Positions 41,619-60,800 of a stretch of 64,000 bases of DNA are shown here, in pieces (within the stretch, counting starts at the first letter, position 1; each line of letters starts with the position of its first letter). The DNA comes from Escherichia phage EP02SG. The DNA is taken from the sequence record PQ301181; one strand, 5' to 3'. The notes beneath the pieces are model-generated. The model was not told the DNA's origin and searched no databases. It saw only the letters and a program-made list of their open reading frames with translations. The position numbers and the translations under genes were made by a program.

Positions 41619-42797
41619 TTAGAAATATTTTTTGTATGAATTGATTACATTTTGGTCTACATCATTATCAATTTGTGCGACAAGATAAGAACTGATTTCA
41701 ACTTCCTGAGGAGCTGCTTGAACTAAATCAGAGTTCAGATATTCACGAATCCAAGGATACGGATGCTTGGTCGGGGCATCGGTGATTGGGCATGGCAAAC
41801 CACACTGTTTCATACGAGACACAGTCAAGTAATCAACAAAAGCACACATACTCTGCGTATTGATACCTGGACATGTACCATCTTTAAAGAGGTGTGCAGC
41901 CCATTCCTTCTCTTGACTATTTACTTCCATAAAAATGTCAACTGCTTCTTGTTCACATTCTTTAGCAATTTGAACCCACTCATCACCATCAGTACCAGAT
42001 TGAAGTTGACGGATAATGTACTGAGTACCCTTGAGGTGGAGTTGTTCGTCACGAGCAATGAACTTCATAATCTTTGCATTACCTTCCATAATTTCCATAT
42101 TTTTGTGGAAGTTAAAGGTACATGCGAAAGATACGTAAAAACGAATAGCTTCCAAGGCGTTAATTACATGAAGGCAAAGATAAAGAGATTTCATTAGCTC
42201 ACGCTTCCAATATGTCTCATGCTCAATAGCATCTTCAATAACGTCTTCGTCTGCATTAATTTCTTTTTGGTATTCGATATCAGCTTTAGCGTTTTCCCAA
42301 TAACGAGTTTTAACCAGAACATCATCGTAATATTTACCTATTGATTCAGCTCGTTTCATGATTGCTTCGTCTAATACAATTTCATCAAATACCTTAGATG
42401 GATCAGTATAAAGATTTCGCATAATATGAGTATACGAACGAGAGTGAATAGTTTCACTGAATGTCCATGTTGCAACCCATGTATCTAATGAAGGGTCGGA
42501 AATCAGTGCCATAAGTACCGCAGATGGGGCCCTGCCTTGGATAGAATCTAATAATGATTGATACTTAAGATTGTTTGTAAAGATGTCCTGTTGGAACTGA
42601 GGAAGCTTATTGAACTGCGCAGAGTCCAACATCAAGTTTACCTCTTCTGGGCGCCAGAAAAATGATAATTGCTTTTCGGTCAAATCTTCAAAAACTTTAT
42701 GGCGTTGAATATCATAACGCGCAATACCAAGACCAGAACCAAAGAACATCGGTTCATTCAAAACATCGACTTGTTGTGTGTTAAAAACTGTAGACAT
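41619..42797 (-). CDS. nrdB: Ribonucleotide reductase beta subunit (NrdB), intron-less
   Basis: Uninterrupted 392-aa ORF with diiron/tyrosyl-radical R2 features; T4 nrdB carries a group I intron, this one does not. Confidence 0.95.
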   Translation of the reverse strand: MSTVFNTQQVDVLNEPMFFGSGLGIARYDIQRHKVFEDLTEKQLSFFWRPEEVNLMLDSAQFNKLPQFQQDIFTNNLKYQSLLDSIQGRAPSAVLMALISDPSLDTWVATWTFSETIHSRSYTHIMRNLYTDPSKVFDEIVLDEAIMKRAESIGKYYDDVLVKTRYWENAKADIEYQKEINADEDVIEDAIEHETYWKRELMKSLYLCLHVINALEAIRFYVSFACTFNFHKNMEIMEGNAKIMKFIARDEQLHLKGTQYIIRQLQSGTDGDEWVQIAKECEQEAVDIFMEVNSQEKEWAAHLFKDGTCPGINTQSMCAFVDYLTVSRMKQCGLPCPITDAPTKHPYPWIREYLNSDLVQAAPQEVEISSYLVAQIDNDVDQNVINSYKKYF

Positions 42798-42832
42798 ATT
42801 ATTCTCGCTTATTATAGGTTTAAATTATTTAA

Positions 42833-43654
42833 TCACATATTATGTATAAGCACTTCAGTTTGAAATGATGCGCCCTTCTTTTGCTTCCTATACATGGTTT
42901 CAAAATATTCAATTTTAAAATTATTAGAAAGAGCCCAATCTTTTAAAATATAATTATTAATATCGTCTGATAGATTATTAGTGATAATAAATTTAGACTT
43001 TGATTGTTTAATTTTGTCTAATAATTCTAATTCATCCTTTTCTTCCCAGCCTGAATATTTAAATTTAGTAGAAAGATACGGCGGGTCAATGAATAAATTT
43101 TTGTTTTCAAAATCTAAATCTCTGAATGATTTATTACTAAATGTAAATCGGTGCTGTCTATTTTTAAATTCAGAAAATTTATCCTTCTGAGACTTATTAA
43201 AAGAAGTTCTGGAATACTTGGCTCTATTGGCGAAAGCCGCGTTATAGTTACCATTACTAGAAAATCGGATTAACGAACTGAATGAAAATAAATGTAGAAC
43301 ATAAAGATATAATCCGTTTTTGGTTTTATCGTATTCTTTTGAAAGATTATAAAAAGGTGCTGGATCTTTGTCATTCAAATTAAAGTCTTCAATAATTTGA
43401 ACTATATCATTAATTGAAGATGATTTCATCTTGTTATACATATCTATAAGAGGAGTATTAATATCATTACATATAACATCTCTCTGACAATTCATAGAAA
43501 ATCCAAGACCACCACAAAAAGCATCCAAAACAGGCTTATCGTCAAAGCGGTTTGAAAATTGTCTAATAAATGGCATATACTTATGTTTTGCACCTGGATA
43601 TGTTATGGCAGGTAGGTCTTTCATTTTATTTCTCGTTGTTAGTGACTCGTCCAT
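42833..43654 (-). CDS. Dam-family (D12 class) DNA N6-adenine methyltransferase
   Basis: 273-aa ORF; AdoMet motif DAFCGG and catalytic FIDPPY; overall pattern resembles T4 Dam as recalled; markedly more AT-rich than flanking nrdA/nrdB. Confidence 0.8.
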   Translation of the reverse strand: MDESLTTRNKMKDLPAITYPGAKHKYMPFIRQFSNRFDDKPVLDAFCGGLGFSMNCQRDVICNDINTPLIDMYNKMKSSSINDIVQIIEDFNLNDKDPAPFYNLSKEYDKTKNGLYLYVLHLFSFSSLIRFSSNGNYNAAFANRAKYSRTSFNKSQKDKFSEFKNRQHRFTFSNKSFRDLDFENKNLFIDPPYLSTKFKYSGWEEKDELELLDKIKQSKSKFIITNNLSDDINNYILKDWALSNNFKIEYFETMYRKQKKGASFQTEVLIHNM

Positions 43655-43667
43655 GAGTCAAATTATA

Positions 43668-45923
43668 TCATAATTTACAGGATGAACAATCTTCAGCTTT
43701 AGGTGTTTCTAATTCATAGTCATCTGTACCTGACCCATCACGAGTGTTATGATAGTAGAGGTTTTTTCCGCCAAAGTACCAGAAGTAAAGCAGATCGTCA
43801 AGCATTACTGACATTGGTACTTTACCTTTCTCAAATACCGCAGGGTCATAGTAAGTATTAGCAGAAGCAGATTGGCACACCCATTTCAACATGATAGCAA
43901 CTTGGGTCAAATAAGGTTTATTACCTTTCTTAGCAAGTTTCCACGCGTAGTCGTAAAGACTCATGTTATGTTCTATATTAGGAACAACCTGACGGAAGTT
44001 GCCTTCTTTAGATTCTTTAATACTTACTGGACCGCGCGGTGGCTCAATCCCATTTGTAGAGTTCGATACTTGACTGCTTGACTCACAAGGCATGAGTGCA
44101 GACAACGTTGAGTTACGAATTCCATGTTCTTTGAGTTCAGCTCGAAGTTCTTCCCAGTCACAGACGTAGTTCGGGGCTGCGATTTGGTCAATCTTTTTAT
44201 TGTACCAGTCGATAGGTAATTCGCCTCTAGACCATTTAGTGTCTGAATAATACTCACAAGGCCCTTTTTCTTTGGCGAGCTTGATTGAAGCTTTGATAAG
44301 GCCATATTGCAATCTCTCAAACAATTCATGAGTCAAATCGTTAGCGTCTTCATATGAAGCAAAGTTAGAAGCTAACCATGCAGCATAGTTCGTAACACCA
44401 ACACCAAGATTACGACGCTTTTTAGCTTTTAAAGCTTCTGGAACCGGATAATCTTGATAGTCTAACAGGTTATCAAGTGCACGTACTTGTACTTCAGCAA
44501 GTTCATTAATTTTATCTTGGTCTTGCCAATCAAATTTATCTAATACAAAAGCAGATAATGTGCATAAACCAATTTCAGCATCAGGACCATTCACATCATT
44601 AGTCGGAATAGCGATTTCACAACATAAGTTACTCTGACGAATTGGAGCTTTTTCACGAATAAACGGAGTGTAGTTATTCGTGTTATCAACGAATTGTGGA
44701 TAAATTCGAGCAGTACCAGAACGTTCAGTCATGAACAATTCAAAGAGTTCTAGTGCTTTGATTCTTTTCTTTCTGATTGTCGGGTCTTTTTCAGCTTTCT
44801 CATAAAGCTCACGGAATTTATCTTGATCTTCAAAGAACGAGTAGTATAGTTCGCCTGACATTTCGTGAGGGCTAAATAAAGTAATATAATCATTTTTACC
44901 AAGGCGTTCCATCATAAGGTCATTAATCTGAATTCCGTAGTCCATATGTCGAATACGGTTTTCATCCACGCCTTTGTTATTTTTCAGAACTAATAGGTTC
45001 TCTACTTCTAAGTGCCACATCGGATAATACGCTGTAGCAGCACCACCACGAATACCACCTTGAGAACAAGATTTTACTGCGGTTTGGAAATGTTTCCAGA
45101 ATGGAATAACACCTGTATGTCGAACTTCACCCATACCGATCTTAGAACCTTCTGCACGAAGCATACCGACGTTGATACCGATACCAGCTCGTTTAGAAAT
45201 ATATTCAATAATTGATGCTGAAGTTTTGTTAATAGATTTTAACGAATCACCGGCTTCAATAACTACACAACTAGAGAACTGGCGAGTTGGAGTACGAGCA
45301 CCTGCCATAATTGGGGTAGGCAATGAAACTTGATGAGTAGAAACGGCATCATAAAAACGAATAATATGTTTCAAACGGTCATGAGTTTCGTCTTGATGTA
45401 AGGCCATACCAATAGCCATGATAGCAAACTGTGGAGTTTCATAAATCTTCCCAGTTGTTTTATCTTTAACTAGATATTTTTCTTTAAGCTGCATAGCACC
45501 AGCATAAGTCAGATCAAAGTCTCGTTCATGTTTAATCTGTGAATCGAGATAAATGATTTCTTCTGCTGAATATTGAGACAACAGCTCAGGGTCATATTTG
45601 CCTTCATTAACACAGTAAGAAATATGGTCGATAAAAGCAGGAGGTTCAAACTGTCCGTATACATCTTTACGAAGTGCAAACATTAGCCCTTTGGCGGCGA
45701 CATACTGATAATCAGGTTCTTCGACAGAAATCAAGTTAGCTGCAACTTTAATACAAATCTTCTGAATATCTTTGGTGCTCATCCCATCGACAAGATGGGT
45801 TTTAATTTCTTCGTACAATTCATATGGGTCAATTTGTGTTCCTTCACATTGCCAAGTTAAGACTTGAATAATTTTCTGTGCATCAAAATTTTGGGATACA
45901 CCACTACTCTTAGTTACTTGCAT
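43668..45923 (-). CDS. nrdA: Ribonucleotide reductase alpha subunit (NrdA)
   Basis: 751-aa ORF; class Ia RNR large-subunit features; T4 NrdA ~754 aa. Confidence 0.95.
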   Translation of the reverse strand: MQVTKSSGVSQNFDAQKIIQVLTWQCEGTQIDPYELYEEIKTHLVDGMSTKDIQKICIKVAANLISVEEPDYQYVAAKGLMFALRKDVYGQFEPPAFIDHISYCVNEGKYDPELLSQYSAEEIIYLDSQIKHERDFDLTYAGAMQLKEKYLVKDKTTGKIYETPQFAIMAIGMALHQDETHDRLKHIIRFYDAVSTHQVSLPTPIMAGARTPTRQFSSCVVIEAGDSLKSINKTSASIIEYISKRAGIGINVGMLRAEGSKIGMGEVRHTGVIPFWKHFQTAVKSCSQGGIRGGAATAYYPMWHLEVENLLVLKNNKGVDENRIRHMDYGIQINDLMMERLGKNDYITLFSPHEMSGELYYSFFEDQDKFRELYEKAEKDPTIRKKRIKALELFELFMTERSGTARIYPQFVDNTNNYTPFIREKAPIRQSNLCCEIAIPTNDVNGPDAEIGLCTLSAFVLDKFDWQDQDKINELAEVQVRALDNLLDYQDYPVPEALKAKKRRNLGVGVTNYAAWLASNFASYEDANDLTHELFERLQYGLIKASIKLAKEKGPCEYYSDTKWSRGELPIDWYNKKIDQIAAPNYVCDWEELRAELKEHGIRNSTLSALMPCESSSQVSNSTNGIEPPRGPVSIKESKEGNFRQVVPNIEHNMSLYDYAWKLAKKGNKPYLTQVAIMLKWVCQSASANTYYDPAVFEKGKVPMSVMLDDLLYFWYFGGKNLYYHNTRDGSGTDDYELETPKAEDCSSCKL

Positions 45924-46266: not shown

Positions 46267-47127
46267 TTATACCGCCATTTTAGCTTTGATAGCTGGATGT
46301 GATTCGTAATTTTTAAGAACGAAATCAGAATGTGTCATCGTTCCAGTAACCCAGTCCATTTGGATTTTTGTAGGCCAATTCTCAAAATTACTAGGCCAAT
46401 TAATTTCAAGAGAACATAACTCTTTAGGTTCACGACGAAGAACTTCTTTGCATTGTTCTACATGATTGCTGTAGATATGCGTGTTGCCGCCTGAGAACAC
46501 TAAATCACCTGGGATAAGGTTACACATCTTCGCTACAATATGCGTCAAGGCAGCGTACGAGGCAATGTTGAACGGCAGACCCAAGAAAACATCTACACTG
46601 CGTTGATACCATTGTAAATCAAGATGTCCATTACGCACGTTAAATTGATAGAACATATGACAAGGAGGAAGAGCCATTTGGTCAATTTCAGCCGGGTTCC
46701 ATGCAGAAACTATTTGACGACGATCATTAGGAAGAGCTTTAATACGGTCGATAGTTTTGACCAATTGGTCTACACCGCCGAAATCACGCCATTGCTTACC
46801 ATAAATAGGACCAAGTTCGCCGCTATGATATCCAAGGTCTTTTGCCTGATTTTCATAGTTGTCGTCCCAAATAGTTTTACCTTGAATAAGACTACCATGA
46901 GTACGAATACGCAAATCATTAACATTGGTAGAACCAGACATGAACCACAGTAACTCGGCAATACAAGCTTTCCATGCTAATTTCTTAGTTGTTACCGCAG
47001 GGAATCCTTTAGTCAGATCCCATCGCAATTTAGTTCCGAACAGGGCAATAGTGCCTGTACCTGTACGGTCGTCTGTTTCGTAGCCATTTTCTAAGATATC
47101 TTTAATCAGGTATTGGTATTGTTTCAT
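46267..47127 (-). CDS. td: Thymidylate synthase (Td), intron-less
   Basis: Uninterrupted 286-aa ORF (T4 Td 286 aa after intron removal); catalytic Cys context MALPPCHMFYQF. Confidence 0.95.
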   Translation of the reverse strand: MKQYQYLIKDILENGYETDDRTGTGTIALFGTKLRWDLTKGFPAVTTKKLAWKACIAELLWFMSGSTNVNDLRIRTHGSLIQGKTIWDDNYENQAKDLGYHSGELGPIYGKQWRDFGGVDQLVKTIDRIKALPNDRRQIVSAWNPAEIDQMALPPCHMFYQFNVRNGHLDLQWYQRSVDVFLGLPFNIASYAALTHIVAKMCNLIPGDLVFSGGNTHIYSNHVEQCKEVLRREPKELCSLEINWPSNFENWPTKIQMDWVTGTMTHSDFVLKNYESHPAIKAKMAV

Positions 47128-47711
47128 TTATAAACGCTCTCAGTAATTTCGGTGAGTTCATCGATTCTGTAGTAATGAGATTCTACCATAGAACGTTGAA
47201 GCATAATATCTTGGACGAAATCTTTATCAAGTTGAACATCGGAATTAACACGACATTTCTTAATGATTTTAGTCATCACGATTTCATCGGCATAAGGCAG
47301 TGCTTGTTTTAATAAGGCAGGACCGCCAATAACCGAGACATCAACATGTTCAGTAGAAAGTTTAAACGGTACGTCAGTTGCAGGGCTAAACAGGTTAATT
47401 TCACCACCTGTTACCAAGGTAATAAATTCAGATTGGGTGATATAGAACCGTGCAAGTTCGTTGGTTTTAGTCCTAGGCAGTTTTCTGGCCATATCAGTGA
47501 CAACCACATGAGTACGATCTGGTAGTAGACGAGGTAATGATGCAAAAGTCTTAGCACCCATAACCATTACAGTGTTTTTAGTGCGAGCAACAAAGTTACT
47601 CATATCTTGTTTGATATGCTTCCATGGAAGTCCATCACCTAATCCAAAAGCATATTCCAGTTTATCATCAACTGTTTTAGACGGTGCGCATGCGAATACT
47701 AATTTAAGCAT
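47124..47711 (-). CDS. frd: Dihydrofolate reductase (Frd)
   Basis: 195 aa from the internal ATG (MLKLVFACAPSKTVD...); T4 Frd 193 aa; 4-nt overlap with td. Confidence 0.88.
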   Translation of the reverse strand: MLKLVFACAPSKTVDDKLEYAFGLGDGLPWKHIKQDMSNFVARTKNTVMVMGAKTFASLPRLLPDRTHVVVTDMARKLPRTKTNELARFYITQSEFITLVTGGEINLFSPATDVPFKLSTEHVDVSVIGGPALLKQALPYADEIVMTKIIKKCRVNSDVQLDKDFVQDIMLQRSMVESHYYRIDELTEITESVYK

Positions 47712-47952
47712 TTTTAAGTCCTTTAATAACTTTTTGGATTTGTGATTTAGAAGAAACCAAATCAGTCTGGATTTGACAACCATCGGTTGGGTCAAATATT
47801 ATAACACAAACGCGAGGTTTTGTTGTGTATCGCCCGGACAAATCAAATGCGTCACCAATGAATTCGGCCAAATCCGGATGGTCTAAATTAACTGAAGTAT
47901 AAACTTCATATCCGACATCAGCGCCTTGAGAGTATTCAACAACAACATTCAT
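47704..47952 (-). CDS. Hypothetical protein (positional equivalent of T4 frd.1)
   Basis: 82-aa ORF, 8-nt overlap with frd start. Confidence 0.5.
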   Translation of the reverse strand: MNVVVEYSQGADVGYEVYTSVNLDHPDLAEFIGDAFDLSGRYTTKPRVCVIIFDPTDGCQIQTDLVSSKSQIQKVIKGLKNA

Positions 47953-47954
47953 AA

Positions 47955-48268: not shown

Positions 48269-48672
48269 TACTTTTTAAAAGTTTTTTGCAAAAGTTTGAT
48301 GATTTCGTCGACGTTGGTTTCATCTACGATACAATGGATTTTTGTTACACCTAAAGTTATACCTTCGTTAGTAGGTTGAGGCTTTTCTAAAGTTACCTCA
48401 GTAAAGTACTCAATAAAGTATTTGAACTCGTCAGGATAAATCTCAAAATAAGTTTCAATTTCACCACCAGCAGAACATACCGTACCATCTTCCATAGTTA
48501 CACTTACTACGTTTGACGTATCGCTATCATAATCAGGTTCCATTCCGTTTACAACAAAACTAGGCCCGTGGAGTTCAATCAATTTTAACATCTTAGCGTT
48601 ATTGTGTGGCGCTTCTTGAACAAAGTCGTCTTTAAACAAAGGGTTAATGATATAAGATTTTCCGATTTCCAT
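48268..48672 (-). CDS. Hypothetical protein (positional equivalent of T4 frd.3)
   Basis: 134-aa ORF; early promoter upstream. Confidence 0.55.
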   Translation of the reverse strand: MEIGKSYIINPLFKDDFVQEAPHNNAKMLKLIELHGPSFVVNGMEPDYDSDTSNVVSVTMEDGTVCSAGGEIETYFEIYPDEFKYFIEYFTEVTLEKPQPTNEGITLGVTKIHCIVDETNVDEIIKLLQKTFKK

Positions 48673-48700
48673 TTTGATTTCCTCATGTTGTTGATAGGTC

Positions 48701-49804: not shown

Positions 49805-50458
49805 CTAATACTTACATGATTTGATTGTTTCTATGAACAATTTCTTAGCAGCATTTCCATCGATTTGAAGTATTTTTCGATATGCCTTTAATTTGGTAGA
49901 ATAATTTTGCCAGACTAAATTATCGGTGAGTTCATCGTGCTTATCTATAATATTCAAAAATGAGTCCAACAATAAGAAAGTCTCAAATGAAATTATATTG
50001 CTTTGTAGCAATTTGAATATGTAGCTCGACTGAACGTTGTTATTATAATCAAATATCTCTTGAAGCGCACTAACTTCAACTTTCTTACTGAAATAGTAGA
50101 TGTTACGTACGTCTTCGGCAAACGTCTCCTTAGCTTGTTTGAGACGTCCAATATATTCCCTATAGAAAACTAATGCATCAGCGTCTGATATCTCACCAAT
50201 CCATGCATCTTGGTTAGCAACTAAGTTGCTTATGAATATCAAGGTGAGTTCCTTCAATTTATATTTCTCTGATAGTTTTTCAAAGAAATATTTATCTCGG
50301 CGTTTTTGATACGCATTATCCGAAACACGCATGCACCAGTTATATTTGATTACGTCATACCGACCATTAAAATGTTGTTTGCACATCAAGTATAGTTTGT
50401 ATACCGATTTTCCGTTAATATAACGTTCTCCATCAGGAGGCATGCGTATTTTAATCAT
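49805..50458 (-). CDS. 59: Helicase loader gp59
   Basis: 217-aa ORF, same length as T4 gp59; position next to gene 32. Confidence 0.9.
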   Translation of the reverse strand: MIKIRMPPDGERYINGKSVYKLYLMCKQHFNGRYDVIKYNWCMRVSDNAYQKRRDKYFFEKLSEKYKLKELTLIFISNLVANQDAWIGEISDADALVFYREYIGRLKQAKETFAEDVRNIYYFSKKVEVSALQEIFDYNNNVQSSYIFKLLQSNIISFETFLLLDSFLNIIDKHDELTDNLVWQNYSTKLKAYRKILQIDGNAAKKLFIETIKSCKY

Positions 50459-50793
50459 AATAAGAAATCTAACGTATTAGTTTTTTCACCACGAGCAACT
50501 GATGGGCGAAGCATGTTTTCGTCAATTGCTTCGCTTGTAATTTTTTCAACAATTCCTGTAGGAATAAATTTAGCAAATTGTGTTTCTGGAATAGAATTTT
50601 CTTCTAAGAAAGCAGTTGTTGCTTCTAAATAAGACATACCAAATTGTTCAACCATGGATTCGATAATGAATCCGTTTTCTTGTCGGTCAAGCAATTTAGC
50701 GATATCATCTTTATCGTGTTTTACTGCTAATTCTTGTTCAGATAAACCGGTCTCATCAACCGGTTTAATATCACTTAGTGAAAACTGTGTCAT
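50455..50793 (-). CDS. 33: Late transcription co-activator gp33
   Basis: 112-aa ORF, same length as T4 gp33; 4-nt overlap with gene 59. Confidence 0.85.
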   Translation of the reverse strand: MTQFSLSDIKPVDETGLSEQELAVKHDKDDIAKLLDRQENGFIIESMVEQFGMSYLEATTAFLEENSIPETQFAKFIPTGIVEKITSEAIDENMLRPSVARGEKTNTLDFLL

Positions 50794-57816: not shown

Positions 57817-60800
57817 ATGGCTACATTAAAACAGATACAATTTAAAAGAAGCAAAGTAGCAGGAGTTAATCCTACTGCAGCACAATTAGCCGAAGGCGAA
57901 TTAGCGATAAACTTAAAAGATCGAACTCTTTTTACTAAAGATGACCTCGGTAATATTATTAGCCTAGGCTTTGCTAAGGGTGGGGATATTAATGGTAATG
58001 TAACTCAAAATGGTGATTATTTACAAAACGGCACATATAATCTTAATGGAAATCAGTTTGTTTATGCAGGAAAGTATATTGAATTCTTGCCAAAAACTGC
58101 TGGAAATGGCGCTTGGGCAAATCAACATCTGAATAAAGCCCCTATCTTTACAGATTTAAGTTCAACTACTTCTGTTTCAGAATATCATCCGCTGATTAAA
58201 CAACGCTATAAAGATGGAACTTTTTCTGTTGGTACGTTAGTAAACGAAGGAAGTTTTAAAATTCATTTTATGAATGAATCTGGTGATTCGAAATATTGGA
58301 CGTTTCGACGCGACGGTGGATTTACTGTTGACGGTGGAGGTTTAGCAGTATCAGGAGGTAGTATAACTACATCTGGAAATATTGCAGCTCTCGGAAATAT
58401 TACTTCACCTCAGATTAATACTAAAAATATTATTTTAGATACAAAGGCATTCGGACAATATGATTCACAATCACTAGTTAACTATACTTACCCTGGAACA
58501 GGCGAAGAAAATGGTATAAACTATCTTCGTAAAGTTCGCGCTAAGTCTGGTGGTACAATGTATCATGAAATTTGTACATCCCAAACAGGTCAGGCTGATG
58601 AAGTTTCTTGGTGGACCGGTAATACACCATTATTTAAACTATATGGTATTCGTAATGACGGCCGAATGATCGTCCGCAATAGCGTAGCCATCGGGACCGT
58701 GACTGCAGGATACCCGTCAAGCGACTACGGTAACGGTGCCGCTTTAGGATTTGGTGTTTATTTAGCTTTAGGCGATAACGGGACGGGGCTGTCATACAAA
58801 AAAACCGGTGTTTATGATTTAGTTGGTTCAGGGAATTCTGTTGCTTCTATTACTCCTGATAGTTTCCGTAGTACTCGTAAAGGTATATTTGGTCGTTCAG
58901 AAGACCAAGGCACCACATGGATTATGCCTGGCACTAATGCCGCTTTCTTGTCTGTTCAAACACAAGCTGATACGAACGCTGCAGGCGATGGTCAAACTCA
59001 TATTGGATACAATGCTGGCGGTAAAATGAGTCATTATTTCCGCGGTAAAGGCAAAACTAATATTAATACTCAGGAAGGTGTAGACGTTAACCCTGGTATA
59101 TTGAAGTTAACCACCGGCGGTGAAAGTATTAGCTTTAATGCCGCAACTGGAAGTATTAATTCTACATTAGCTTTTCGTCTTAATAAAGGCATAATTATTG
59201 ATGGACCTGATAATCAGGGATTCCAGTTTAACGCCCCGACGGCTGCAGATGGTACTAGAAGTATATACTGGAATAGTGGTACTCTCGCAGGCCAAAACAA
59301 AAACCCTGTTACAGTTAAAGTGTGGGGTAATTCATTTAACGCATCTGGTGATCGTAATCGTGAAACCGTTTTTGAAGTAGCTGATGGGCAAGGTTATTAT
59401 TTTTACGCTCAACGTACTAATCCTGCATCAGGTCAAACAGTAGGTCCGGTTAACTTTAAATTTAACGGAACTGTCGAAACAGGCCATATCGTAGGCCTTG
59501 GTAATATAAGTGCCTCCGGTACAGGTTCTTTTGGTGGTAATGTTACCATGACTAATGGCCTGTTTGTCCAAGGTGGTTCTTCTATTACCGGACAAGTTAA
59601 AATCGGCGGAACAGCCGATGCATTAAGAATTTGGAATGCCGAATATGGTGCTATTTTCCGCCGTTCAGAAGCATCTTTGTATATTATCCCTACTCCTAAA
59701 GATGCTGGAGAATCGGGCGGTATAAGTAATCTTAGACCATTGATAATAGAACTGAACACTGGTACAGTTAAAATGTCGCATGATGTTCATTTAGGAGATT
59801 CTGGATCTGGTACAGGATTATTACAAGTAAGTAATAGTCTTAAAACTATTAAAATGATATGTCCAGTAACTATTAATGAACGTAATGCAGCGCTTACTCT
59901 AGATTCTCCTTCATCTTCTTCTGCTAATTATTTACAGGGTTCTAAAGCTGGAATTAAATCGTGGTATGTTGGTCTTGGTGGCGCTGGAAGTGATTTATCG
60001 CTTTATAGTCAATCTTATGGACATGGTCTTGTTATAAGCGATAATTTCGTGTCAATCAGTAAACCTCTTAAAGTTGGAGATGCACAACTAGGAACTGATG
60101 GTAATATTACTGGCGGTTCTGGCAATTTTGCTAACTTGAATACCACAATAAATAACCTTAAGACGGATATTGTCTCAAGTTATCCAATTGGTGCTCCGAT
60201 TCCTTGGCCTACTGATACACCTCCTGAAGGTTATGCCATAATGGAAGGTCAAACATTTGATGCTGGCTTGTATCCTAAGTTAGCTGCTGTGTATCCTTCC
60301 GGCTCTCTGCCTGATATGCGTGGTCAAACTATCAAGGGTAAACCATCCGGGCGTGCTGTATTAAGTACAGAAGCAGACGGTGTTAAGTCACATAGCCATA
60401 GTGCAAGTGCATCAAACACAGATTTGGGTACTAAGACCACTTCTAGTTTTGATTACGGCAGCAAAACGACTTCAAGCTTTGATTATGGTACTAAGACCAG
60501 TAATACCACTGGCAACCATAACCATACAGTGAGTGGTAATACTGGTTCCGCTGGTGCTCACCAACATGCGCGTTCAGGCCCTCAGATGCAAGGCGGCATA
60601 CCCACTAGCATATTCTATGATGGATACAATAGTGCTGGTCCAAATGGCAACGCTAAAATCACTGCAACCGTGAGCGGTGCTACTGCATCGTCGAATATGG
60701 CCAAAACTTCTTCAGACGGTGCCCACACCCATAGTTGGTCAGGAACTACTAGCTCTACGGGTAACCATGCTCATACTGTGGGTATTGGTGCTCATACCCA

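Follow-up and report, generated by a model that had tools for sequence, protein, structure and literature searches.

What is a DNA methyltransferase gene doing between nrdA and nrdB of a T4-like phage, and how did it get there? In Escherichia phage EP02SG (record PQ301181), of which a stretch of 64,000 nucleotides (nt) was analysed (the window below), the nrdA-nrdB gap is filled by an unbroken minus-strand open reading frame (ORF) of 273 amino acids (aa) at 42833..43654, taken from the ORF listing of the 64-kb window. At the ORF's own base composition one stop is expected per 12 codons, so that a run of 273 codons would stay free of stops with a probability of about 4e-11. We consider, with a probability of roughly 0.78, that the gene codes for a functional orphan D12-class methyltransferase of the alpha group with a T4 Dam-like fold and recognition hairpin, that GATC is its likely target, and that it represents a rare lineage of the nrd slot recently transferred from a Tequatrovirus. 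What appears to be new here, as judged by sequence comparison, is this rare lineage distinct from T4 dam, its recent arrival from Tequatrovirus with mapped end points, and its probable status as the only Dam of the phage. The probable product is ten residues shorter than the ORF:

42833..43624, minus strand: methyltransferase coding sequence in its probable true form, 263 aa, from Met11 of the 273-aa ORF to the TGA stop; matches PF02086 and T4 Dam

The ORF matches only one Pfam family, PF02086 (MethyltransfD12, D12-class N6-adenine DNA methyltransferases), with 84.4 bits against a threshold of 22 (E 1.4e-23), and its residues 19-255 cover positions 1-251 of the 253-position profile. It also matches the PHROGs family phrog_56 ‘DNA methyltransferase’ (E 5e-36), and GenBank homologues are already annotated as DNA adenine methylase. 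The sequence-only reading had recognised a D12-class enzyme by two motifs, DAFCGG (residues 44-49) and FIDPPY (residues 188-193, 273-aa numbering). Both are intact and are located as follows:

43502..43519, minus strand: motif I, binding S-adenosylmethionine, F-C-G-G-L-G, residues 36-41 of 263; F36 and G38 invariant, G39 nearly so
43076..43087, minus strand: catalytic motif IV, D-P-P-Y, residues 180-183 of 263; invariant in all aligned homologues

Conservation of motif I was judged across the clade, T4 Dam and distant D12 homologues. FxGxG precedes DPPY, which is the motif order of the alpha group, and both motifs are invariant across near and distant homologues. The class assignment is thus borne out by the profile search, which returned a methyltransferase family, and by the alignment, in which FxGxG and DPPY are conserved.

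By sequence, the closest solved structure is that of T4 Dam (1yfj, residues 4-252, E 1.3e-36 in the HMMER alignment); E. coli Dam (EcoDam) and DpnM come next, far behind (E about 2e-5). The AlphaFold model (mean predicted local distance difference test score, pLDDT, 87.4) gives the same order: the best fold match in the PDB is T4Dam with a template modelling (TM) score of 0.83 (E 1e-21), followed by EcoDam and DpnM with TM 0.70-0.75. The GATC-specific T4 Dam (M.EcoT4Dam; 1yfj, 1yf3, 1q0s) shares with the methyltransferase the Pfam family, the order FxGxG-recognition region-DPPY, a full-length alignment, size (263 vs 259 aa), similar AT-richness and the status of a phage-borne orphan. It differs in genomic location (between genes 56 and 61 in T4, in the nrdA-nrdB slot here) and in sequence: identity is 33%, and the C-terminal third of the methyltransferase is divergent. 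EcoDam and DpnM (M.DpnII 1) share the D12 fold and the DPPY motif, with 16-18% identity in structural alignment. The methyltransferase has Leu at the position of EcoDam L122, while its recognition of the first base pair is of the T4Dam type (Arg, not Tyr138).

T4Dam, EcoDam and DpnM all target GATC, and their structures are deposited as Dam/DpnII-type DNA adenine methyltransferases. We take the T4Dam counterparts of the EcoDam contact residues from structural work on T4Dam. The region that presumably reads the target is the following:

43223..43282, minus strand: predicted DNA-recognition beta-hairpin, F115...R134, aligned with T4Dam F111-R130 (HMMER alignment to 1yfj)

Five of the seven base-contacting or intercalating residues of T4Dam (K11, F111, S112, R116 and R130) have identical equivalents in the methyltransferase, and at the sixth position T4Dam M114 is replaced by Leu, the residue found in EcoDam (L122). 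The roles described for EcoDam (PMC4417163) are Gua contact for R124, contact with the T:A pair for L122 and P134, intercalation for Y119, binding of the orphan base for N120, and reading of the first pair for K9 and Y138. Since the DNA-contacting residues of T4Dam are mostly conserved, GATC is most likely the target.

Several points weigh against this picture. At the position of T4Dam P126 and EcoDam P134, where a Pro contacts the third base pair, the methyltransferase has Ala; a 6-residue insertion follows the R130 equivalent behind the recognition hairpin, with low pLDDT at residues 135-138; and the sister allele group B has Lys in place of the Gua-contacting Arg. The score with the NCBIfam model TIGR00571 ‘dam’ is 93.9 bits, below the curated cut-off of 114.85 which the T4 Dam control passes with 239.5; sister alleles are also below it (CF-SP2 67.8, a group C allele 87.4 bits). 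Target specificity is not readable from sequence alone. An anti-restriction benefit is general knowledge for phage Dam enzymes, and the benefit proposed below is derived from it. The phage DNA is expected to contain modified hydroxymethyl-cytosine, as arabinosyl-hydroxymethyl-cytosine has been reported for mosigviruses (bioRxiv 10.1101/2020.01.19.911818). Finally, the Dam count for this phage covers the 64-kb window only, and phage BGP carries both Dam types as distinct genes.

The replaced Pro together with the insertion, the Lys of group B, the scores of 67.8-93.9 bits on TIGR00571 and a maximum identity of 33% to any characterised enzyme would fit a target different from GATC, be it of a relaxed GAT type or a new motif, and hence a new D12 specificity instead of a Dam equivalent. 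We hold this to be rather unlikely, in view of the five identical contact residues, the sixth being that of EcoDam, and of the closest solved folds, all of which are of the Dam/DpnII type. The score on the E. coli Dam equivalog model NF008152 is 33.9 bits, below its cut-off of 441. By these profiles the protein is a D12-class member placed outside the Dam subfamily as NCBI defines ‘dam’, so the resemblance to T4 Dam noted in the sequence-only reading is right as far as the closest solved relative is concerned and does not extend to subfamily membership. Group B (BGP, CF-SP2 and fDHCT2; L002:4010-4801, L003:4010-4801 and L007:3507-4298) has its Lys aligned with T4Dam R116 and EcoDam R124, and the hairpin tip of this group is MLKFSKDDKYIA vs LIRFSSNGNYNA. 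The group B enzymes may differ in specificity.

The ratio of nonsynonymous to synonymous divergence (dN/dS) between the methyltransferase alleles is 0.03-0.13 at synonymous divergence (dS) from 0.1 to about 2.0, the same range as for nrdA in the same genomes. Such values indicate purifying selection and hence, to judge from the alleles compared, a working gene. Phage dam genes are dispensable in the laboratory and this one is rare, as would be expected if it were a decaying, functionless remnant. This is very improbable given that the frame is intact, the length is the same in all alleles, the catalytic motifs are invariant and dN/dS remains at 0.03-0.13 over dS of up to about 2.

Three phage sequences were examined for depletion of 4-bp palindromes, namely the window, the genome of its close relative Mosigvirus AV110 and Tequatrovirus T4_ev240, and in each of them GATC is far more depleted than any other. 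The observed to expected ratios (O/E) are:

Window: 60 GATC observed vs 204 expected, O/E 0.29; next lowest palindrome CTAG, 0.63
AV110, whole genome: O/E 0.20
T4_ev240 (27 kb): O/E 0.30

The depletion is independent of whether the phage carries a Dam. Since no other 4-bp palindrome is as depleted, GATC sites are under selection in these phages, Dam or no Dam. A phage Dam that methylates the residual sites is a plausible complementary defence against GATC-directed nucleases. By analogy with T4 Dam, we expect the enzyme to bind S-adenosylmethionine at FCGGLG and to flip the target adenine into the DPPY pocket, most likely methylating GATC on the newly replicated DNA of the phage itself; the remaining GATC sites would thereby look ‘self-methylated’ to GATC-directed host nucleases. 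The gene would be expressed with the nrdA-nrdB early/middle transcription unit.

How common is such a gene? An exhaustive HMMER search (1.84 billion representatives of 15 billion proteins) found a single 50%-identity cluster with E<1e-30, the next match outside it having 34% identity and 116 bits. A word-indexed search covering 5.8 billion proteins gave four clusters at the 90%-identity level, with 75-98% identity; behind these, identity drops to 33% or less. Among 50,697 GenBank phage records there are eight carriers at 75% identity or more, that is about 1% of the 846 GenBank records matched by the nrd region as a whole. They include Tequatrovirus T4_ev240 and BGP, three more assigned to Tequatrovirus by 82% identity over the region, Gelderlandvirus CF-SP2, the unclassified coliphage fDHCT2 and Marfavirus PhiKpNIH-6. 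A bacterial source was not found, as the exhaustive search returned no protein of more than 38% identity outside the clade. The exact protein is not on record in either its 273-aa or its 263-aa form, the protein scan of IMG/VR gave no match, and the metagenome scan gave nothing closer than one 31%-identical relative. These searches revealed no other Mosigvirus carrier. A literature search for descriptions of the gene at this position brought up no paper.

Throughout the survey of GenBank carriers and metagenomic contigs (nine for P0001, four for P0004), the order is nrdA - methyltransferase - nrdB in every record or contig with both flanks visible; the PhiKpNIH-6 record begins inside the locus and shows the nrdA-methyltransferase side alone. 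In the window, the 273-aa ORF is separated by 13 nt from the nrdA stop and by 35 nt from nrdB:

43668..45923, minus strand: nrdA, upstream flank, 751 aa; Pfam ATP-cone, Ribonuc_red_lgN and Ribonuc_red_lgC
41619..42797, minus strand: nrdB, downstream flank, 392 aa; Pfam Ribonuc_red_sm

No restriction gene stands beside the methyltransferase: Pfam identifies the genes on either side as nrdA and nrdB in every carrier examined with both flanks visible. Of the possibilities raised by the sequence-only reading, which had pointed to the missing cognate restriction gene, that of an orphan methyltransferase is backed by the evidence. In T4 the same slot contains mobE and nrdB.1, while dam lies between genes 56 and 61; the sequence-only reading was right in placing T4 dam elsewhere and homing endonuclease genes in the gap (PMC2790892). 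By sequence and position, the Dam proteins of T-even phages fall into two distinct lineages, each with a locus of its own, and it is the rarer lineage that is tied to the nrdA-nrdB slot.

Could the gene still have arisen by relocation or duplication from the canonical T-even dam of the 56-61 locus? T4 Dam being the closest solved structure and both genes being AT-rich (28.5% and 27.7% GC) would agree with such an origin. We find it highly improbable. The two proteins are just 33% identical, and the methyltransferase falls into a separate, isolated cluster and misses the TIGR00571 cut-off that T4 Dam passes. Neither AV110 nor T4_ev240 has a dam at the 56-61 locus, and BGP has both genes. The relocation proposed earlier is therefore abandoned. 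A second dam copy is less likely than a sole Dam, since the methyltransferase is the only Dam-like gene in the 64-kb window and the whole genome of the close relative AV110 is free of Dam of any kind (tblastn with both Dam types gave nothing at E<=1). On account of the latter, this gene is probably the only Dam of the genome. According to one report (bioRxiv 10.1101/2020.01.19.911818), mosigviruses arabinosylate hydroxymethyl-cytosine and are devoid of methyltransferases, which makes the window unusual for the genus. Six of the seven complete carriers have a single Dam-like place, T4_ev240 among the phages without dam at 56-61. Mutual exclusion with canonical dam was considered and dropped: any Dam is present in just about 35-40% of comparable coliphage records, P is about 0.2 by our own arithmetic, and BGP has both genes.

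The window belongs with the RB69 group (Mosigvirus) of T4-like phages: it is collinear with AV110 over nearly its whole length at 94-97.5% identity (97% in the nrd flanks), and the 805-nt methyltransferase block is the sole large insertion specific to the window; in AV110 the slot is empty. Comparison with T4_ev240 gives quite different values for the gene and for its flanks:

Methyltransferase: 97.9% nt identity to T4_ev240, dS 0.108
nrdA: 78.9% nt identity to T4_ev240, dS 1.885
nrdB, first 670 nt: 79.1% nt identity to T4_ev240

The limits of the transferred segment were located by marker-by-marker comparison with AV110 and T4_ev240:

42666..43683, minus strand: donor-type (Tequatrovirus) tract in the Mosigvirus backbone

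The upstream crossover is within nrdA nt 2223-2241 (window 43701-43683, in the last ~35 nt of nrdA), and the downstream one within nrdB nt 132-147 (window 42666-42651, in the first ~150 nt of nrdB). The nrdB markers are donor-type at nt 1-2, recipient-type in a patch at nt 18-63, donor-type again at nt 72-132 and recipient-type from nt 147 (42651) on. To judge from these markers, the transferred segment is a short, patchy conversion tract. The gene was thus acquired by lateral transfer, which we take to be recent and due to homologous recombination in the nrd flanks. The direction was from Tequatrovirus to Mosigvirus, because the slot is empty in every Mosigvirus-type record at least 95% identical among the matches listed, and the donor allele is present in several Tequatrovirus genomes or contigs. 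The transfer would have occurred during co-infection, where the end of nrdA and the beginning of nrdB are conserved. Each crossover is located in the nearest block without any difference between donor and recipient, and plain homologous recombination in a mixed infection is sufficient to explain the event.

Two more discordant pairs were found. BGP has nrdA 96% identical to that of T4_ev240, and its methyltransferase is 91.5% identical to that of CF-SP2 and 80% to that of T4_ev240. The methyltransferase genes of PhiKpNIH-6 and contig ERR11504031 are 97.8% identical, their nrdA genes 74.5%. The gene has thus crossed lineages at least three times. Elsewhere its divergence tracks that of the flanks, e.g., 78% vs 79% between the window and CF-SP2. 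Because of this rough agreement in other lineages the slot may be an old home of the gene, which we picture as a long-standing resident, occasionally exchanged and often absent. The same agreement would favour an ancestral Mosigvirus gene, inherited vertically and lost in the other members of the genus. For the present copy we regard that as extremely improbable: dS to the Tequatrovirus copies is 0.108 vs 1.885 for nrdA, donor-type polymorphisms extend into the ends of nrdA and nrdB, and about 90 records are 95-99% identical over the nrd region, every listed one at 95% or above having an empty slot.

The known occupant of the slot, T4 mobE, is a free-standing HNH gene co-oriented with nrdA and nrdB (Wilson and Edgell, 2009, PMC2790892). 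The 3' end of either gene appears to carry the nrdB promoter, and recombination end points lie in the same short stretches. The methyltransferase differs from mobE in having no sequence similarity to it, no nuclease domain and no evidence of self-promoted mobility: no HNH or GIY-YIG domain is present in the insert, the D12 domain is the only one and covers almost the whole ORF, and gaps of 13 and 35 nt leave no room for another gene in the cassette. The earlier suggestion of cargo left by a mobile-element event thus holds loosely, in the sense of a past transfer, and fails with regard to mobile-element machinery, of which the cassette has none.

MobE nicks nrdB at nt 122-126, and homing junctions occur within nrdB nt 1-189 and close to nrdA nt 2237-2242 (PMC2790892). 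At 42651-42676 of the window (nrdB nt 122-147), the downstream crossover is 6-25 nt past the position of the MobE nick in codon 42, AAG, a codon also present in this nrdB. This closeness may be a coincidence because the crossover block is the nearest fully conserved one. A non-autonomous homing passenger would behave differently: a MobE-type break made in nrdB by a co-infecting phage would trigger repair from the methyltransferase-bearing genome, and the gene would spread faster than by plain recombination. Occupation of the T4 slot by mobE, the crossovers at nrdB nt 132-147 and nrdA nt 2223-2241 near the MobE junctions, the short and patchy tract and at least three lineage crossings are in line with such a passenger. 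We nevertheless think it unlikely. Neither the cassette nor the sequenced donors have mobE or any endonuclease domain in the slot, so a third phage would be required; the crossovers are in the nearest fully conserved blocks, as ordinary homologous recombination would predict in any case; and a driving element should be commoner than this gene, which is present in about 1% of records. Similarly doubtful is a broader variant, in which a non-autonomous mobile cassette uses breaks at the MobE target (nrdB codon 42) to pass from one T-even genus to another and/or the enzyme has a non-GATC specificity protecting hypermodified DNA. If true, it would be the first methyltransferase gene shown to act as homing cargo in the T4 nrd hotspot.

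The insert spans from just behind a small post-nrdA hairpin to just ahead of the ribosome-binding region of nrdB, and both ends carry copies of a 16-nt imperfect direct repeat, AACGAGAAATAAAATG resembling AAGCGAGAATAATATG:

43643..43667, minus strand: TATAAT (43662-43667) and hairpin TGACTC-ATGGAC-GAGTCA (43643-43660) directly after the nrdA stop; kept in filled and empty slots
43622..43637, minus strand: translation-initiation region of the methyltransferase, AACGAGAAATAAAATG, upstream copy of the repeat, read from the sequence
42795..42810, minus strand: translation-initiation region of nrdB, AAGCGAGAATAATATG, downstream copy of the repeat bracketing the cassette, read from the sequence
42827..42853, minus strand: candidate MotA-type middle promoter for nrdB, GTGCTTAT (42846-42853), 13 nt, TTAAAT (42827-42832)

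The empty site of AV110, ...TAAC|TAAGTGAGAAAATATAATG, has a single repeat copy. Recombination between the end repeats would cleanly delete the methyltransferase, which would explain the frequent empty slots. The stem of the post-nrdA hairpin has a compensatory A-T to G-C change in allele group C; its fold is no better than that of shuffled sequences (z = -0.4) and its function is uncertain. A role as a terminator or RNA element was considered and discarded, as the scan found no terminator-like site and the fold does not exceed the shuffles.

The hairpin bears on the choice of the start codon. The first ATG (43654) is inside its loop, and the hairpin is kept in phages with an empty slot (e.g., AV110), so the segment is not considered to code for the methyltransferase:

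43625..43654, minus strand: in-frame 5' extension of the ORF, probably untranslated; ACG at 43654 in two alleles; the segment is the post-nrdA hairpin

The first-ATG position is ACG in T4_ev240 and CF-SP2. The ATG at 43624 is common to all alleles and has GAGAAATAAA just upstream, with Shine-Dalgarno-like GAGA/GAGG shared by all of them. The homologues are 263-264 aa long, in agreement with the corrected 263-aa form. Met11 (43624) is therefore probably the true start: the 273-aa ORF reported between nrdB and nrdA is intact, with its start placed about 10 codons too far upstream.

The candidate nrdB promoter overlaps the last codons of the methyltransferase. The last 30 nt of the gene and the spacer to nrdB are the best conserved DNA of the cassette, nearly invariant even between alleles that are 73% identical overall. 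In T4, the middle promoter of nrdB is located inside mobE (PMC2790892). By analogy, we suggest that the methyltransferase is read through from nrdA and that nrdB is served by a promoter in the 3' end of the methyltransferase gene. The promoter scan reported no sigma-70 promoter for the methyltransferase at the nrdA end and none at either junction.

The promoter early stem-loop (PeSL) cassettes of T4-like phages (Arbiol et al., 2010, PMC2839356; Comeau et al., 2014, PMC4122927) are similarly organised, the methyltransferase likewise being a single accessory gene between short repeats that is gained or lost as one unit between close relatives. The regulatory repeats would correspond here to the ~16-nt initiation-region repeat, with TATAAT and the small hairpin upstream. 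The differences are that the repeats of the methyltransferase cassette are ribosome-binding regions and not promoter/terminator pairs, that its transfer used the flanking nrd genes, that TATAAT and the 6-bp hairpin are upstream only, the hairpin not being significantly stable, and that the scan gave no promoter-like site at either junction, whereas a PeSL cassette has a stem-loop and a near-consensus early promoter at each side.

The gene had also attracted attention by its AT-richness. At 28.5% GC (23% at third codon positions) it is indeed poorer in GC than nrdA (38.6%), nrdB (37.9%) and the window mean (37.9%), and is the global GC minimum of the 64 kb, the sole stretch below 30% (792-nt windows, standard deviation 2.6%). 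Low GC as a sign of recent foreign origin was rejected. All three allele groups have 26.8-31.1% GC in genomes whose nrdA has 37-42%, and canonical T4 dam has 27.7%; as all of them are equally AT-rich despite long residence, low GC does not date the transfer. Both Dam lineages of T-even phages are stably AT-rich.

The locus shows, at base resolution, how a gene passed between two T4-like genera with about 20% difference in their shared genes: a single accessory gene moved, and co-conversion of the flanks was limited to about 20 nt on one side and 130 nt on the other. For phage therapy and defence work it is of interest that adenine methylation may set a Mosigvirus apart from its Dam-less relatives in its behaviour towards GATC-directed or N6-methyladenine-dependent host nucleases. 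Our understanding of such methyltransferases is unchanged, the enzyme being of an ordinary kind. The recombinant junction itself gave 0 matches in IMG/VR.

Further differences between the window and AV110 were registered outside the nrd region. td (46267..47127) is uninterrupted in the window; AV110 has a 1016-nt group I intron with a homing endonuclease gene at ~46578. At about 50455-50459 the window lacks a 671-nt segment of AV110, the annotation of which is that of a homing endonuclease gene next to the helicase-loader gene. Megablast gave no match in AV110 for a 1.75-kb block at 58306-60059, within the region corresponding to the distal long-tail-fibre gene (gp37). The flanks of this block are 94.6% and 97.2% identical to AV110, and this position of an unmatched block between closely related flanks in the gp37 region suggests an exchanged receptor-binding segment. 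Two smaller differences are the 238 nt at 47717-47954 which are absent from AV110 and overlap an 82-aa ORF (47704..47952), and a small replacement near 48695 (48670-48695), where AV110 has 237 nt missing from the window.

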